This document shows, one piece after another, positions 34,653 through 53,526 of a DNA stretch of 64,000 nt (position 1 is the first letter of the stretch; every line of letters begins with the position of its first letter). Source of the stretch: Escherichia phage HY126; the sequence record PP658200.1. One strand, given 5' to 3'. The notes under the pieces were generated by a model. It had not been told where the DNA came from. It did no database searches and saw only the letters and a list, made by a program, of their open reading frames with translations. The position numbers were made by a program, and so were the translations under genes.

Positions 34653-34832
34653 TTATTCACCAATTAAAGTTTCAACAAAATTCACCAAAGCATTCTGGCA
34701 AGCGTCAACCTGATTTTCATAAAAGTCTTCGTTATCATTTACCGCATGATAAGCGACATCATTCAAATCTGAATCGGCTTCACGTAAGTCACGGATAAGG
34801 TCCATCAATTTATTAGCTTGTTCACGTGTCAT
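34653..34832 (-). CDS. 59-aa acidic protein (MTREQANKLMDLIRDLREADSDLNDV...)
   Basis: Hand-translated; stop 1 nt before next ATG. Below ORF-track cutoff. Confidence 0.4.
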   Translation of the reverse strand: MTREQANKLMDLIRDLREADSDLNDVAYHAVNDNEDFYENQVDACQNALVNFVETLIGE

Positions 34833-35809: not shown

Positions 35810-36022
35810 TTAATTTTGGCCAGTATTTATTTTTCGCCTTTGGACGGCCTTAACATCTGTGAGGTATTTTTCCAGCTTGCGCTTGCGTGTATAATCAGCT
35901 TTAGAACCAGTTTGACGGATATCCTCGTTTAAATGAGAAATAGAATGTCCTAATTCTCTTCGGATTTCATCCAATTGGGTTACAGTAAGATTACGAAGTT
36001 GTCTTTCGTTTAATTGCTGCAT
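35810..36022 (-). CDS. Hypothetical basic protein
   Basis: ORF track 70 aa. Confidence 0.5.
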
Positions 36023-36049
36023 ATATACCTCTTGGTTAGATATTAGTAT

Positions 36050-36631
36050 TTATAACAACCCTGTCAAATCATTCCAATGCTTCCGGCATAATGACACATA
36101 TCTATCAGTATCACCAATTTCAATTTGACTGCCATCTGTAATTGGAAGTCCGTCTTCCGTGACTCTAGCTACCATTGTGGCCTTTTTACCACAATGACAG
36201 ACACCTTTAAGTTCAACAAGCTTATCGGCAATAGCCATTAATGCTTGAGAACCTTCAAATAGATTACCTTTAAAATCTGTTCGTAGTCCATATGCCATTA
36301 CCGGCACATTGTATACGTCAACAATACGACTAAGTTGATACACCTTTTCAGTAGTTAAGAATTGAGCTTCGTCAACAAATACACAATGAATATCCTTTTG
36401 TGCTGCAGCCCATTTATAGAATTCAAAGATATCCATGTCTTTTGTAATTATATTGGCGTCCTGACGAATACCAATACGAGAGACTATTTCACCTTTTGAA
36501 TCGCGAGTATCAATAGCAGGTTTAAGAACTAATACACCCATTCCGCGTTCTTTATAATTATGCGCAGCAGTCAAAAGAGAAGCAGATTTTCCAGCATTCA
36601 TTGCTGCATAAGTAAAAATTAAACTCGCCAT
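36050..36631 (-). CDS. tk: Thymidine kinase
   Basis: ORF track 193 aa; MNAGKS P-loop, VDEAQF, CxxC zinc ribbon. Confidence 0.95.
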   Translation of the reverse strand: MASLIFTYAAMNAGKSASLLTAAHNYKERGMGVLVLKPAIDTRDSKGEIVSRIGIRQDANIITKDMDIFEFYKWAAAQKDIHCVFVDEAQFLTTEKVYQLSRIVDVYNVPVMAYGLRTDFKGNLFEGSQALMAIADKLVELKGVCHCGKKATMVARVTEDGLPITDGSQIEIGDTDRYVSLCRKHWNDLTGLL

Positions 36632-36632
36632 C

Positions 36633-36821
36633 TTAGTCCTTAGTTAAATTTTCTAAATATGTTTCTAAATCATTTTCAGCTTTATCGATAGATTTTACTA
36701 ATTCGTAGTATGTTTCAGCATCTCCATAATCCGAAGCCAATTCAAAAGATAAATCTCGTTCTAAACTAATAATTTCGCTGATTAAAAATCGTATTTCATT
36801 CTTTTGTTCGCGAGTAATCAT
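36633..36821 (-). CDS. Hypothetical acidic protein
   Basis: ORF track 62 aa. Confidence 0.45.
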   Translation of the reverse strand: MITREQKNEIRFLISEIISLERDLSFELASDYGDAETYYELVKSIDKAENDLETYLENLTKD

Positions 36822-37024
36822 AAGGAATTTATATAATCAATAAGTTCTTGTTCTTTATCGTCGAAATCTTTACACAGTTCTTCGTATTCGTCGGTATTAA
36901 AAGGACCGCATTCATCGCAAACTTTTTCCAATTCACTATTTTTATCCATAACTTCGTGAATAAGAGAAAACAGTCTGTCTTTTTGTTCTTTACTTAAACT
37001 CATAACCATGTAACCTTTAAGCAA
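36818..37024 (-). CDS. Hypothetical protein
   Basis: ORF track 68 aa. Confidence 0.45.
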   Translation of the reverse strand: MLKGYMVMSLSKEQKDRLFSLIHEVMDKNSELEKVCDECGPFNTDEYEELCKDFDDKEQELIDYINSL

Positions 37025-37227
37025 TATTCTTCTACATGTTGTTTACGACCTTTCTTATCAATAAAGGTATATTCAACGAATGTTCCAATATAGTCTTTAT
37101 CTACATCATGTGGACTATTAATTGGGCATTTAGTACGGCAAATGCGTTCCCATTGACGAATAATTACTGCCTTATTCTTTGGGTCATACGGATGTGGATA
37201 ATGTATATTCATAATAATGGTTCCCAA
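37000..37227 (-). CDS. Hypothetical protein
   Basis: ORF track 75 aa. Confidence 0.45.
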   Translation of the reverse strand: MGTIIMNIHYPHPYDPKNKAVIIRQWERICRTKCPINSPHDVDKDYIGTFVEYTFIDKKGRKQHVEEYCLKVTWL

Positions 37228-37706
37228 TCAACAATCACAATTTCTAGTTTAGTGGAATACGTATCTAAAATCTCTTCAATGACATCCCAGTTTCCACCAC
37301 CGATACCTGCACCAATTCTTGGCATATAAATTACAGGCTTTGTTATCTTATTCTTTCCGAATTCATTTAATTCTATTATACAATTCATTAAAGCAGAGTA
37401 CTCAAAATTAGGTCCCGGCTCAAACTGTGTATAAAGATTAAAGCAATAAGCTTTATGGGTCTTAAAATATTTTTCATAAACCGAATAAGTCCCGAGTTTA
37501 GACTCGTCTCCGAATTCGGTTTGAAGTTTATCGGCTTCCAGAATTTTTGGATAAGCCTTTGCTAATTGTCCTGCTACACCGGCGCCCATTGTATGAAAAC
37601 AATTACACCCATGAGCAATATTATTACCTTTAGAAAACAGGGCGACAATATCGCCCTTGATATAGTTTTTAATCACTTGCTGCAAGTCCTCTAGTATAAG
37701 AGTCAA
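37209..37706 (-). CDS. Macro-domain-like protein
   Basis: ORF track 165 aa; NIAHGCNCFHTMGAGVAGQL resembles macro-domain glycine-rich ADP-ribose-binding loop. Confidence 0.55.
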   Translation of the reverse strand: MTLILEDLQQVIKNYIKGDIVALFSKGNNIAHGCNCFHTMGAGVAGQLAKAYPKILEADKLQTEFGDESKLGTYSVYEKYFKTHKAYCFNLYTQFEPGPNFEYSALMNCIIELNEFGKNKITKPVIYMPRIGAGIGGGNWDVIEEILDTYSTKLEIVIVDWEPLL

Positions 37707-38016
37707 CTAGACGGTCCACCATAGAATTGCATGCTGCCTTATCTTTAGGTTCCGCCACCGAGCATTCTAATATTTGCCATTTTTTATAGTATCTTTTAAT
37801 TAAGGTAGACGCCTTGAACCTACTAGACGCCCCATCTTTTTCTCCGTCTTTATACGCATATAACAATTTTTGTGAAAAATCTACTTTACACTCTTGACTT
37901 TTACCACAATAATCAGACGCCGTTCTGTTTGTATACTCCGTTACATCAGTATATGTAGTATTAGCAAGAGCGCTAAATGAAACCAAGCCAACTATTAAAG
38001 CCAACATTTTGGTCAT
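37669..38016 (-). CDS. Small secreted protein
   Basis: ORF track 115 aa; signal peptide MTKMLALIVGLVSFSALA, four Cys. Confidence 0.5.
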   Translation of the reverse strand: MTKMLALIVGLVSFSALANTTYTDVTEYTNRTASDYCGKSQECKVDFSQKLLYAYKDGEKDGASSRFKASTLIKRYYKKWQILECSVAEPKDKAACNSMVDRLVDSYTRGLAASD

Positions 38017-38555
38017 TCTTTTATTTCCAGTAGTTTATTTGATTTAAGGTAATTAGCCTTTTCTAGGACTTCAGAAGCATATTTACTTCCAGCACTTGTC
38101 TTCCATCCCGCGTTATATGAGGATATAGCTTTTCTTATATCCCCGTTATGTATATTTAACCAATAAGAAAATTCGATATAAGCCCATCTGGCTGAATTAG
38201 ACCGCTTAGATAGCATTTTCTTAATTTGGGCATCAGTCATATTATAACCAAGCTGGTTAATTCTTGCCCTCATTGTTGGTAGATAATTTTGGAACATTCC
38301 ATACGCATGGTGACCTTTCTTATCTTTAAGATTAATACCGGCAGATGATTCCTGCCATAGTATTGCGGCCATTATGTATCCAAGTCCTTTCTTATGCATA
38401 TTTTCATGCGTTTTAAATTTTCCATCCTTAGAAAACTGTTCCCCAAACTGATAAGCATAATTCAAGTTATCGAGTTGGACATTACTAAAAGTATGCTCGG
38501 AGCTATGTGCTGATAATGAAAGAGCAAATAGACCAGCGAGTAGTGCTTTTCTCAT
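38013..38555 (-). CDS. Periplasmic lytic-transglycosylase-like protein
   Basis: ORF track 180 aa; signal peptide; SLT motifs ILWQESS, GMFQ, SYNAG. Confidence 0.6.
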   Translation of the reverse strand: MRKALLAGLFALSLSAHSSEHTFSNVQLDNLNYAYQFGEQFSKDGKFKTHENMHKKGLGYIMAAILWQESSAGINLKDKKGHHAYGMFQNYLPTMRARINQLGYNMTDAQIKKMLSKRSNSARWAYIEFSYWLNIHNGDIRKAISSYNAGWKTSAGSKYASEVLEKANYLKSNKLLEIKE

Positions 38556-38563
38556 GTTTACCT

Positions 38564-39022
38564 CTAGATTTTAATCACTGCTTTAGAAGCTTTTCCTGGT
38601 AGTCGTTTACTGTTAATAATAGCCATTCTGCATTGAAGAGTCTTCATTTTGAATGCTGGATTTTCGCGACAAACTGTAAGTCCTAACCAAAGATTTCCAT
38701 CAGTTATTTCTAAACGGCCTGGGCGATATTCGACACCTTCGACAAAATCTTCATCAACATCTGGACGTGCTGGCATTGATAAAAATTCTGCAACTTCTTT
38801 AACATGATTTTTTACTTTACGAAATAATTCAAAAACGTAATTCTCATCTATTTCTCTCTGGATGGCACGATCTAAGAGATGTTGAGAATACTTGATATGA
38901 AAGCCTGGTAGTCCAAGAGACTTTGCAGCATCTTTTATACTGGCATTTATTTTGCGGAACTCCGTTTCAAAGATTCGACGGAGTTTATTACGGCGGATAA
39001 AAACGTCTGAATTGATAGTCAT
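38564..39022 (-). CDS. regB: RegB site-specific endoribonuclease
   Basis: ORF track 152 aa; near-identical to T4 RegB (MTINSDVFIRRNKLRR...CRMAIINSKRLPGKASKAVIK). Confidence 0.9.
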   Translation of the reverse strand: MTINSDVFIRRNKLRRIFETEFRKINASIKDAAKSLGLPGFHIKYSQHLLDRAIQREIDENYVFELFRKVKNHVKEVAEFLSMPARPDVDEDFVEGVEYRPGRLEITDGNLWLGLTVCRENPAFKMKTLQCRMAIINSKRLPGKASKAVIKI

Positions 39023-39032
39023 TTTGATTTCT

Positions 39033-39079
39033 CCTCTAGTTGACAGGTCTATAGTAACACAACTAGAGGAGAAGTAAAC
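39033..39079 (-). promoter_or_regulatory. Promoter/stem-loop cassette with SD in 3' arm (upstream of regB)
   Basis: Minus sense GTTTAC-ttct-CCTCTAGTTG...TTACTATAGA...CAACTAGAGG then 10 nt, ATG; 10-bp inverted repeat. Confidence 0.5.
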
Positions 39080-39420
39080 TACTCTTTGAAAGGAATTAAC
39101 TTTTTAACTGCTTTAGATACTTCGTCACGAACCTGGTGGAAGTTCTTGAGCTGTTCAAGGCGTTGTTCGTAATACGCAATCTCATCTTCTTCAAGACAAT
39201 CGTCAGCGTCTTCTTTCAGATATGCCTTGTACTCATTAAAGAGGGCCCATAGGCGATTCTCAAAGTCATCAAGGCTTTGAATTTTCTTGTGCTTCGGAAC
39301 AAGGCCAAAAGGATTGCTTTCAGTTATGCGTCGAGATGCTTCATAATGAGTTCCAAAGCCTGATAGGATTTGAGCCATTAGTATTTTTCCTCTGGTTGAA
39401 ATACCGCACGACAAGCCCAC
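39079..39420 (-). CDS. Hypothetical protein
   Basis: ORF track 113 aa. Confidence 0.45.
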
Positions 39421-39623
39421 ATACTAGCTTCCTTTAGGCGTTCTTTAGCACAGTTCAATTGGGACAAAGCCGTCAGAGCTTCAGGAGTATTTGCTGATAA
39501 TGCTTCTTCTGCCAGGGCGTCTAGAATAAGTCCTAAACGAACTTCGGCATCTTTAATAGCGTTCACTTTACCGATTTTATCATCGGTATGCGGCTTGTAG
39601 CCTTTGATGTCTTCAATCGACAT
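39378..39623 (-). CDS. Hypothetical 81-aa protein at the T4 vs.4 position
   Basis: Track ORF trimmed to ATG 39623 (GAGG SD); [31 protein letters not shown]... Confidence 0.4.
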
Positions 39624-52554: not shown

Positions 52555-52633
52555 ATTTTCCTCACTTAAAGTTGGTGCCTCTAGAAAGATTTGAACTCTC
52601 ACCATTAACCTTAGAACGATTATATGCTATCCA

Positions 52634-53299
52634 TTACACTATAGAGGCAATTAAATTATTTACAATATCTTCTTTATAAACTTCAGCATAATGAAGTTCA
52701 TATATTTCCCATCCTAATGATTTTATAATATCATGGCGTTCTTTATAATAAGGGGCCAAAATCTTTTTCTTAGGATTGGAGTAATGTTGGTTTCCATTAA
52801 CTTCAATAATAATCTTTTTATCTATTAAAGCAATATCCGTGCAATACGCTCGGTTTTTAACCGGTTGGTATTCTTCAATAAATGAAATTCCGTTTTCTAT
52901 TAATTTAGATTTCAAAAATTCACAAGGCACAGATTTAAATTTTGTATTTTTCTTCCAAGGATGTTTATCAGGGTTTTCATTCAACCATTTTTTCCGAGCA
53001 TTAGATATTTTTATTCTAGATTCCTCAGAGTGTTCTCTACCTAATGAAGCGGCTGACAATTTTTGTCTAGTCTCTTCCGAAATTACTACAGGGACACCAG
53101 TCTTTTTAGATACAACATACTGGTTTAAATTACCTGAAGCTATACGTGCTTTATTCATTGCTGCAATGGCTGATTTAGAACTTTCTTTATACAATTCCAA
53201 TTTAGGGTTGGATTTACACCATCTAGTGTGGTTAGCCATCCATCCTTTAGGTTTATTAGAAATATCAAATTCCATATTACAATGTTTACAAATGCTCAT
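52634..53299 (-). CDS. Freestanding homing-endonuclease-like protein (Zn finger + NUMOD-like repeats + DUF559/Vsr-like nuclease)
   Basis: CKHC...HTRWC; ISEETRQKLSAASLGREHSEESRIKISNARK; IIEVNGNQHY...ELHYAEV; start at ATG 53299 (track start is TTG 53305). Confidence 0.6.
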   Translation of the reverse strand: MSICKHCNMEFDISNKPKGWMANHTRWCKSNPKLELYKESSKSAIAAMNKARIASGNLNQYVVSKKTGVPVVISEETRQKLSAASLGREHSEESRIKISNARKKWLNENPDKHPWKKNTKFKSVPCEFLKSKLIENGISFIEEYQPVKNRAYCTDIALIDKKIIIEVNGNQHYSNPKKKILAPYYKERHDIIKSLGWEIYELHYAEVYKEDIVNNLIASIV

Positions 53300-53309
53300 T
53301 ACCAATTAT

Positions 53310-53328
53310 CTCCTATAAAATATAGGAG
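53310..53328 (-). promoter_or_regulatory. SD-sequestering hairpin upstream of the endonuclease-like gene
   Basis: CTCCTATA-ttt-TATAGGAG; 3' arm contains AGGAG 10 nt before the 53299 ATG. Confidence 0.4.
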
Positions 53329-53373
53329 TATTTATTATTTGGATAGAGCACTTAATTTACTTCGTTTAAATTA

Positions 53374-53445
53374 CTGGCGCACTTGGACTCGAACCAAGAT
53401 AAAGGAGTTAACAGCTCCCCGTAATAACCTTTATACGATGCACCA
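53374..53445 (-). tRNA. tRNA-Asn (anticodon GUU), CCA not encoded
   Basis: Hand-folded: acceptor TGGTGCA/TGCGCCA, D-arm with GG, anticodon stem GGGAG/CTCCT loop CTGTTAA, T-arm CTTGG-TTCGAGT-CCAAG. Confidence 0.8.
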
Positions 53446-53451
53446 TTTGTT

Positions 53452-53526
53452 TGGTGACCCTGGCTGGTTTCGATCCAGCTACCTATCAGTTATGAGCTGA
53501 CAGCTCTCCCATTGAGCTACAGGGCC
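53452..53526 (-). tRNA. tRNA with CAU anticodon (Met, or Ile if lysidine-modified), CCA encoded
   Basis: Hand-folded: acceptor GGCCCTG/CAGGGTC, D-arm GCTC-AATGGGA-GAGC, anticodon loop CTCATAA, T-arm GCTGG-ATCGAAA-CCAGC, 3' ACCA. Confidence 0.8.

Follow-up and report, generated by a model that had tools for sequence, protein, structure and literature searches.

A stand-alone macrodomain protein of Escherichia phage HY126, orthologous to T4 Tk.4 (AdfM), is a likely eraser of DarT2-made thymidine-ADP-ribose with a predicted glutamine-type active site

The gene at 37209..37676 on the minus strand of the window (the whole 64,000-nucleotide stretch of Escherichia phage HY126 DNA that was analysed, from record PP658200.1) encodes a 155-aa protein with a single macrodomain, and it is the orthologue of T4 tk.4 (adfM, anti-DarT factor macrodomain), a member of PHROG 335 (match E=7e-67). 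We consider it likely that this protein, Tk.4, acts as an AdfM orthologue: a macrodomain eraser of the thymidine-ADP-ribose made by DarT2, using glutamine-based chemistry. The HY126 and T4 proteins align without gaps along their full 155 residues, at 84% identity. The T4 gene occupies the same slot between vs and tk.3, has the same start position and Shine-Dalgarno sequence, and its product has all of the family-invariant residues in common with the HY126 protein. The differences lie at 25 of the 155 residues, including a K in T4 at the position of HY126 G127 in the phosphate-binding loop, and in the start codon, which is ATG in T4 and GTG in HY126; furthermore, HY126 is a Mosigvirus-like T-even phage, unlike T4.

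What the T4 gene does is known from genetics. When a T4 transposon library was grown on DarTG2 hosts, one gene alone, tk.4, came out as significant; a clean knockout made the phage DarTG2-sensitive, T4 did not need the gene on a host that lacked DarTG2, and tk.4 was renamed adfM (bioRxiv 10.1101/2025.11.20.689424). This finding filled a gap: every member of the Tevenvirinae that has been tested withstands DarTG2, and the resistance does not depend on AdfA or AdfN; T4 deleted for both remains resistant (PMC11257639). The requirement for tk.4 during growth on DarTG2 hosts was demonstrated by others, specifically for the T4 orthologue, and enzymatic removal of ADP-ribose from DNA by T4 AdfM was inferred there from genetics only (preprint of November 2025, bioRxiv 10.1101/2025.11.20.689424). 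A search of the literature on Tk.4 proteins found this genetic preprint and no biochemical study. The earlier note had proposed, from the letters of the DNA, an ADP-ribose eraser that counters an ADP-ribosylating defence, and the published work on the T4 orthologue agrees with that proposal; the check it suggested, plating a deletion mutant on DarTG hosts, corresponds to what the T4 study did with its tk.4 knockout. Both the gene and the role of its orthologue are therefore already known; GenBank labels it ‘macro domain protein’ or ‘phosphatase’, and records of the phage collection encode proteins up to 99.4% identical to it. The only point that goes beyond the published description is the apparent Gln-type, SCO6735-like active site of the T-even AdfM, as read from alignments. 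In practical terms, an intact tk.4 predicts that HY126 should resist DarTG2-carrying E. coli and Shigella, which is relevant to the choice of therapeutic phages.

The boundaries of the gene follow from comparison with its relatives. The maximal open reading frame (37209-37706, minus strand) has 165 aa from a TTG, and its translation contains NIAHGCNCFHTMGAGVAGQL, as the earlier note had quoted it. That note took the whole frame as a 165-aa product; the frame and the motif are real, but alignment with T4 and the lengths of homologues give 155 aa from a GTG. By direct reading of the sequence, this probable start lies at 37674..37676 (minus strand). In a DNA alignment it falls on the T4 ATG, and the Shine-Dalgarno-like GAGGA 10 nt upstream of it (37687..37691, minus strand; the plus strand reads tcctc) is common to the HY126 window, T4 and phage moskry. 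The ten extra codons that begin with the TTG (37677..37706, minus strand) lie inside the 3′ end of vs. In T4, a 1-nt indel takes the TTG extension out of frame; in relatives below about 90% identity, the alignment begins only at residue 11 of the 165-aa frame; database homologues have a length of about 155 aa; and the moskry annotation starts the tk.4 counterpart at the same GTG, giving 155 aa. On the strength of the T4 alignment, the upstream frame shift in T4 and the homologue lengths, we reject the TTG start and a 165-aa protein. Thus tk.4 almost certainly starts at the GTG at 37676 and has 155 codons, and codons 37677..37706 of the maximal frame are probably not translated. At its 5′ end the GTG overlaps the TAA stop of vs (37671-37669) in GTGATTAA; at its 3′ end the TGA stop (37211-37209) and the ATG of tk.3 (37212-37210) form an ATGA overlap (37209..37212, minus strand), read from the sequence, which suggests that tk.4 and tk.3 are translationally coupled in one transcription unit. 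From this ATG, tk.3 encodes 70 aa that match DUF7202 end to end.

The surrounding genes, all on the minus strand, follow the order regB, vs.1, vs, tk.4, tk.3, tk.2, tk.1, tk, which is identical in T4. Because all of these genes are on the minus strand, tk.4 lies 5′ (transcriptionally upstream) of tk; the earlier placement of the gene downstream of tk holds in plus-strand coordinates only and is reversed in transcription. The 2.6 kb around tk.4 are 99.2% identical to Shigella phage phi25-307 and share 96-98% identity with many Mosigvirus-type T-even phages. A scan of 35900-39600 for promoters and terminators yielded 10 promoter-like sites compared with 13.3 in shuffled sequence; with such sites rarer than in shuffled sequence, no promoter could be assigned in this interval. 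Two plus-strand antisense frames, 37036-37329 and 37566-37694, sit opposite strongly conserved coding sequence.

Sequence and structure searches agree on the fold. The protein matches the Pfam Macro family (PF01661) with 28.1 bits, against a gathering threshold of 22, over model positions 2-117 of 118. A single-sequence search of the PDB found BT1257 (6e-11), and a profile of 36 family sequences found BT1257 (9e-17), TARG1 (2e-15), SCO6735 (2e-13) and M. tuberculosis DarG (3e-12). An AlphaFold2 model, built from the 36-sequence family alignment with the T4-like database protein P0004 standing for the T4 sequence in the modelling input, has a mean pLDDT of 95.2 and a pTM of 0.90, and its top Foldseek matches in the PDB are TARG1 (E-value 3e-10), Poa1p (2e-9), BT1257, DarG and SCO6735, all with probability 1.00. 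HY126 Tk.4 has the three-layer alpha/beta macro fold, with both the GxG loop (G31-A-G33) and the second glycine-rich phosphate loop (G122-A-G124) of a macrodomain; in macrodomains, the GxG ADP-ribose-binding loop follows the second strand (PMC9503650). The earlier note had called the protein macro-domain-like and had named a predicted fold that does not match a macrodomain as the refutation; the model and the Foldseek search show a fold that does match. By the model, Tk.4 belongs to the TARG1/DarG/SCO6735 (‘ALC1-like’) macrodomain class, and within this class it is best regarded as a separate subfamily that is carried mostly by phages.

This subfamily is widespread. A tblastn search (E up to 1e-5) located Tk.4 in 2,800 of 50,697 phage records, mostly of phages with Escherichia, Klebsiella, Salmonella, Pseudomonas, Vibrio, Shigella, Acinetobacter and Aeromonas as hosts. 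Such wide spread agrees with a survey in which the macrodomain was the commonest ADP-ribose-processing domain of phages (PMC9503650). Bacterial plasmids carry weaker stand-alone homologues, and the plasmid tblastn matches comprised only stand-alone macro and SLOG-fusion proteins, with no DarG among them. In Bacillus thuringiensis plasmids (for example, NC_018509.1 139336-139788), the genes at which distant homologues of about 28% identity are found bear the annotation ‘SLOG family protein’, a hint of macro-SLOG fusions, or of neighbouring genes, within bacterial conflict systems.

To locate the active site, the HY126 protein was aligned with T4 Tk.4, two distant phage relatives, BT1257, SCO6735, TARG1, two DarG macrodomains and PhiKZ gp104, with the PDB sequences taken from HMMER alignments (those of DarG and SCO6735 by querying with PhiKZ gp104 and with a homologue from a Streptomyces plasmid), and conservation was counted over 121 relatives of 39-97% identity. 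The motif NIAHGCNCFHTMGAGVAGQL (residues 19-38; 37563..37622, minus strand) comprises the H22-G-C-N25-C active-site loop and then the G31-A-G33 loop. In these alignments, the segment that had been read as an ADP-ribose-contacting loop corresponds to the HxCN catalytic loop together with the GxG loop that binds ADP-ribose, in keeping with that reading. H22 is conserved in 118/121 relatives, N25 in 119/121 and G33 in 121/121; also invariant in all 121, along with G33, are Q84, N80, Y82, D49, A35 and G62. Q84 (codon 37427-37425, codons checked by eye) closes the strand end N80-L-Y-T-Q84 (37425..37439, minus strand). The alignments place the phosphate-binding loop, P119-R-I-G-A-G-I-G-G-G128, at 37293..37322 (minus strand); its P119, G122 and G124 are present in 119/121 relatives, the remaining two being gapped at these positions.

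Several of these positions have counterparts in characterized enzymes. Specifically, N25 is equivalent to the conserved catalytic-loop asparagine that is N22 in DarG and N27 in SCO6735 (PMC9411070, PMC13309987), and H22 is equivalent to SCO6735 H24 and to the conserved TARG1 histidine. Q84 falls in the column of DarG K80, TARG1 K84 and SCO6735 Q85, so that a glutamine stands in place of the catalytic lysine, and G126 falls in the column of TARG1 D125, which leaves the second residue of the TARG1 dyad absent. The pattern of conservation is as in an enzyme and points to a lysine-independent, SCO6735-like mechanism. With an invariant glutamine where DarG needs a lysine, Q84 and N25, and no lysine, are the residues that we predict should be mutated. 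In the column of the invariant D49 (codon 37530-37532, minus strand), DarG, SCO6735 and BT1257 have a tyrosine.

SCO6735 of Streptomyces coelicolor (PDB 5e3b) and BT1257 of Bacteroides (PDB 2fg1/2afc) are likewise stand-alone proteins with a glutamine at the lysine position; Q84 and N25 align with Q85 and N27 of SCO6735, as a glutamine with its positioning asparagine. SCO6735 clears DarT-made thymidine-ADP-ribose from DNA and shields Streptomyces from DarT; its Q85A mutation abolishes activity and N27S nearly does so, and the mechanism proposed for it is water-mediated, with the glutamine positioning the distal ribose (PMC9411070). Despite these similarities, SCO6735 and BT1257 are only 22-30% identical to HY126 Tk.4, and the residue before the glutamine is a threonine in Tk.4 (as in DarG and TARG1) but a glycine in SCO6735 and BT1257. 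Also missing are the lysines that position DNA in SCO6735 and its extended mobile loop: A32 stands in place of K34, and the segment after Q84 has no lysine to match K89 and falls short of the SCO6735 loop by about six residues. Tk.4 would therefore need a different means of binding DNA, a point that weighs against the proposed eraser role.

Human TARG1/OARD1 (PDB 4j5r) aligns with HY126 Tk.4 nearly without gaps through the active-site region, and TARG1 also removes thymidine-ADP-ribose from DNA (PMC13036486). Its Lys84/Asp125 dyad is absent, however, as the alignments have Q84 and G126 in those columns; a TARG1-type dyad is thus ruled out. Yeast Poa1p (PDB 6lfq) is structurally close and has the HxCNC motif in common, but it has a serine at the position of the Tk.4 glutamine.

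DarG, the antitoxin partner of DarT, matches only in part. With the NCBIfam DarG equivalog the protein reaches 31.6 bits, where the cut-off is 250 (model positions 4-146 of 338), and with the PADLOC DarG model 33.2 bits (positions 4-145 of 329), in both cases over the macro part only. DarG and DarG2 (PDB 5m31, 5m3e, 5m3i, 7omu) have a catalytic Lys80 where HY126 Tk.4 has its glutamine, and K80 is an active-site residue in the T. aquaticus and M. tuberculosis enzymes (PMC13309987, PMC9411070). Neither a DarT-binding domain nor a darT neighbour was found: HY126 Tk.4 is a single domain of 155 aa, adjoined by vs and tk.3. DarG membership is ruled out by the NCBIfam score together with the missing catalytic lysine, second domain and darT neighbour, and, given the lack of the catalytic lysine, the chemistry of Tk.4 probably differs from that of DarG.

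A second phage protein bears on this comparison. PhiKZ gp104, from the chimalliviruses, is a phage stand-alone macrodomain that counters DarTG2 and is also named AdfM; it is imported into the phage nucleus and removes DarT2 marks from DNA in vitro (PMC13309987). In contrast to the Gln-type HY126 Tk.4, gp104 is DarG2-like and Lys-type, with N23, K78 and an FPTKDNW motif. Among PDB entries it matches M. tuberculosis DarG best (9e-25), whereas hhalign relates it only remotely to Tk.4 and its family (probability 95.5%, 22% identity). T4 Tk.4 and PhiKZ gp104 are thus different enzymes under one name, which annotation pipelines could easily conflate.

These observations lead us to the following model. 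Host DarT2 would attach ADP-ribose to thymidines in single-stranded phage DNA, and replication would thereby be blocked. Tk.4, whose gene presumably shares a transcription unit with vs and tk, would then act as a phage-borne orphan ‘antitoxin’: most likely it binds the ADP-ribose and cleaves the ribose-thymine bond, restoring normal DNA. In this scheme N25 would hold Q84 in place, and Q84 in turn would orient the distal ribose so that water-mediated cleavage could occur, following the mechanism put forward for SCO6735. We infer the hydrolase activity, the thymidine-ADP-ribose DNA substrate and the glutamine mechanism alike. Tk.4 may in addition erase uracil-ADP-ribose on RNA, an activity that is possible by analogy because TARG1, DarG and SCO6735 all have it (PMC13036486). 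Tentatively, and with slightly less than even confidence, we suggest further that the T-even AdfM/Tk.4 proteins are a lysine-less, TARG1-like branch rather than a captured DarG2, and that they carry out SCO6735-like cleavage by glutamine and water without the DNA-gripping lysines, by way of, for example, D49. If so, phage counter-defence against DarT2 arose at least two times and with different chemistry, Gln-type in Tk.4 and Lys-type in PhiKZ gp104.

A different explanation for the phenotype of the T4 knockout is that Tk.4 protects mainly by binding DarT2 as a stoichiometric inhibitor, with no hydrolysis of ADP-ribosylated DNA. Catalytically dead SCO6735 (Q85A), DarG (K80A) and TARG1 (K84A) all lower DarT activity in vitro, SCO6735 most strongly, and since dead SCO6735 and DarG inhibit DarT by direct interaction, protection could be had without hydrolysis (PMC9411070); moreover, AdfA, the other T-even anti-DarT factor, acts by binding the toxin (PMC11257639). 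However, H22, N25, G33, Q84, G122 and G124 are invariant or nearly so down to 39% identity, as expected of an enzyme, and the 155 aa of Tk.4 leave out the separate DarT-binding domain of DarG, whose models span 329-338 positions. We therefore regard pure inhibition as unlikely, although it is the strongest of the alternatives.

Less probable again is a housekeeping role, in which Tk.4 would be an ADP-ribose-1″-phosphate phosphatase or an O-acetyl-ADP-ribose deacetylase that cleans up NAD metabolites, as the database label ‘phosphatase, A1pp motif’ implies. Poa1p acts on ADP-ribose-1″-phosphate, and its H23 and S30 are matched by H22 and T29 in HY126 Tk.4. Against this, the label is a carry-over by homology, Poa1p has its serine where the Tk.4 family has an invariant glutamine, and the only known phenotype of the T4 orthologue is DarTG2 sensitivity, the gene being dispensable when DarTG2 is absent. 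To our knowledge, ADP-ribose-1″-phosphate is not a product of the T4 tRNA repair pathway.

Least probable, and in our view very improbable, is that Tk.4 erases some other ADP-ribose, whether on the protein or RNA targets of Alt, ModA and ModB, on RNA bases modified by CmdT or by uracil-ADP-ribosylating toxins, or in Thoeris-type signals: the closest structural matches are erasers of DNA thymidine marks and not ThsA, the Alt and Mod enzymes modify arginine, and we know of no macrodomain of the ALC1-like class that cleaves ADP-ribosyl-arginine. CmdTAC, a defence that ADP-ribosylates mRNA, is strongly effective against wild-type T4, which carries tk.4, and Tk.4 therefore does not neutralise CmdT (PMC11618068). 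Two of the roles that had been suggested earlier, removal of the marks of the phage's own ADP-ribosyltransferases and degradation of a Thoeris-type signal, found no support here, and Thoeris goes unmentioned in the text of the T4 preprint. Erasure of DarT2-made thymidine-ADP-ribose remains the reading that we prefer.

The neighbourhood of tk.4 holds several further features. At the 5′ end of the gene, a terminator-like hairpin (37639-37657, minus strand) reads AGGGCGAT-ATT-GTCGCCCT followed by GTTTTCTAAA; it sits 20-38 nt past the start codon and is the sole intragenic hairpin recorded in the scan of 35900-39600. The 26-nt stretch that contains it is 100% identical in T4, while its flanks have diverged. 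The hairpin could be a chance feature of conserved codons, or it could be an RNA element that affects expression from tk.4 to tk.

Directly upstream of tk.4, vs (valyl-tRNA synthetase modifier; 37669-38016, minus strand) matches no Pfam family; in T4, vs showed the strongest depletion of insertions in minimal versus rich medium (bioRxiv 10.1101/2025.11.20.689424). The next gene, vs.1 (38013-38555, minus strand), has a signal-peptide-like N-terminus and a weak match to the SLT lytic-transglycosylase family (18.8 bits, under the cut-off of 21.3), and several GenBank records call it ‘endoribonuclease’ or ‘RegB’. This label is probably an annotation error that spread from the adjoining regB (38564-39022), which is a true REGB_T4 match. 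On the other side of tk.4, the paralogous genes tk.1 (36633-36821, minus strand) and tk.2 (36818-37003, minus strand) both match Pfam DUF7438, and the moskry counterpart of a small frame at 34653-34832 carries the same VOG label as tk.2; from these sequences, the acidic proteins of about 60 aa that recur around tk look like a small family. Farther along the window, 52573-53526 (minus strand) holds three phage tRNA genes, Arg(tct), Asn(gtt) and Met(cat), a cluster that is usual in T-even phages.
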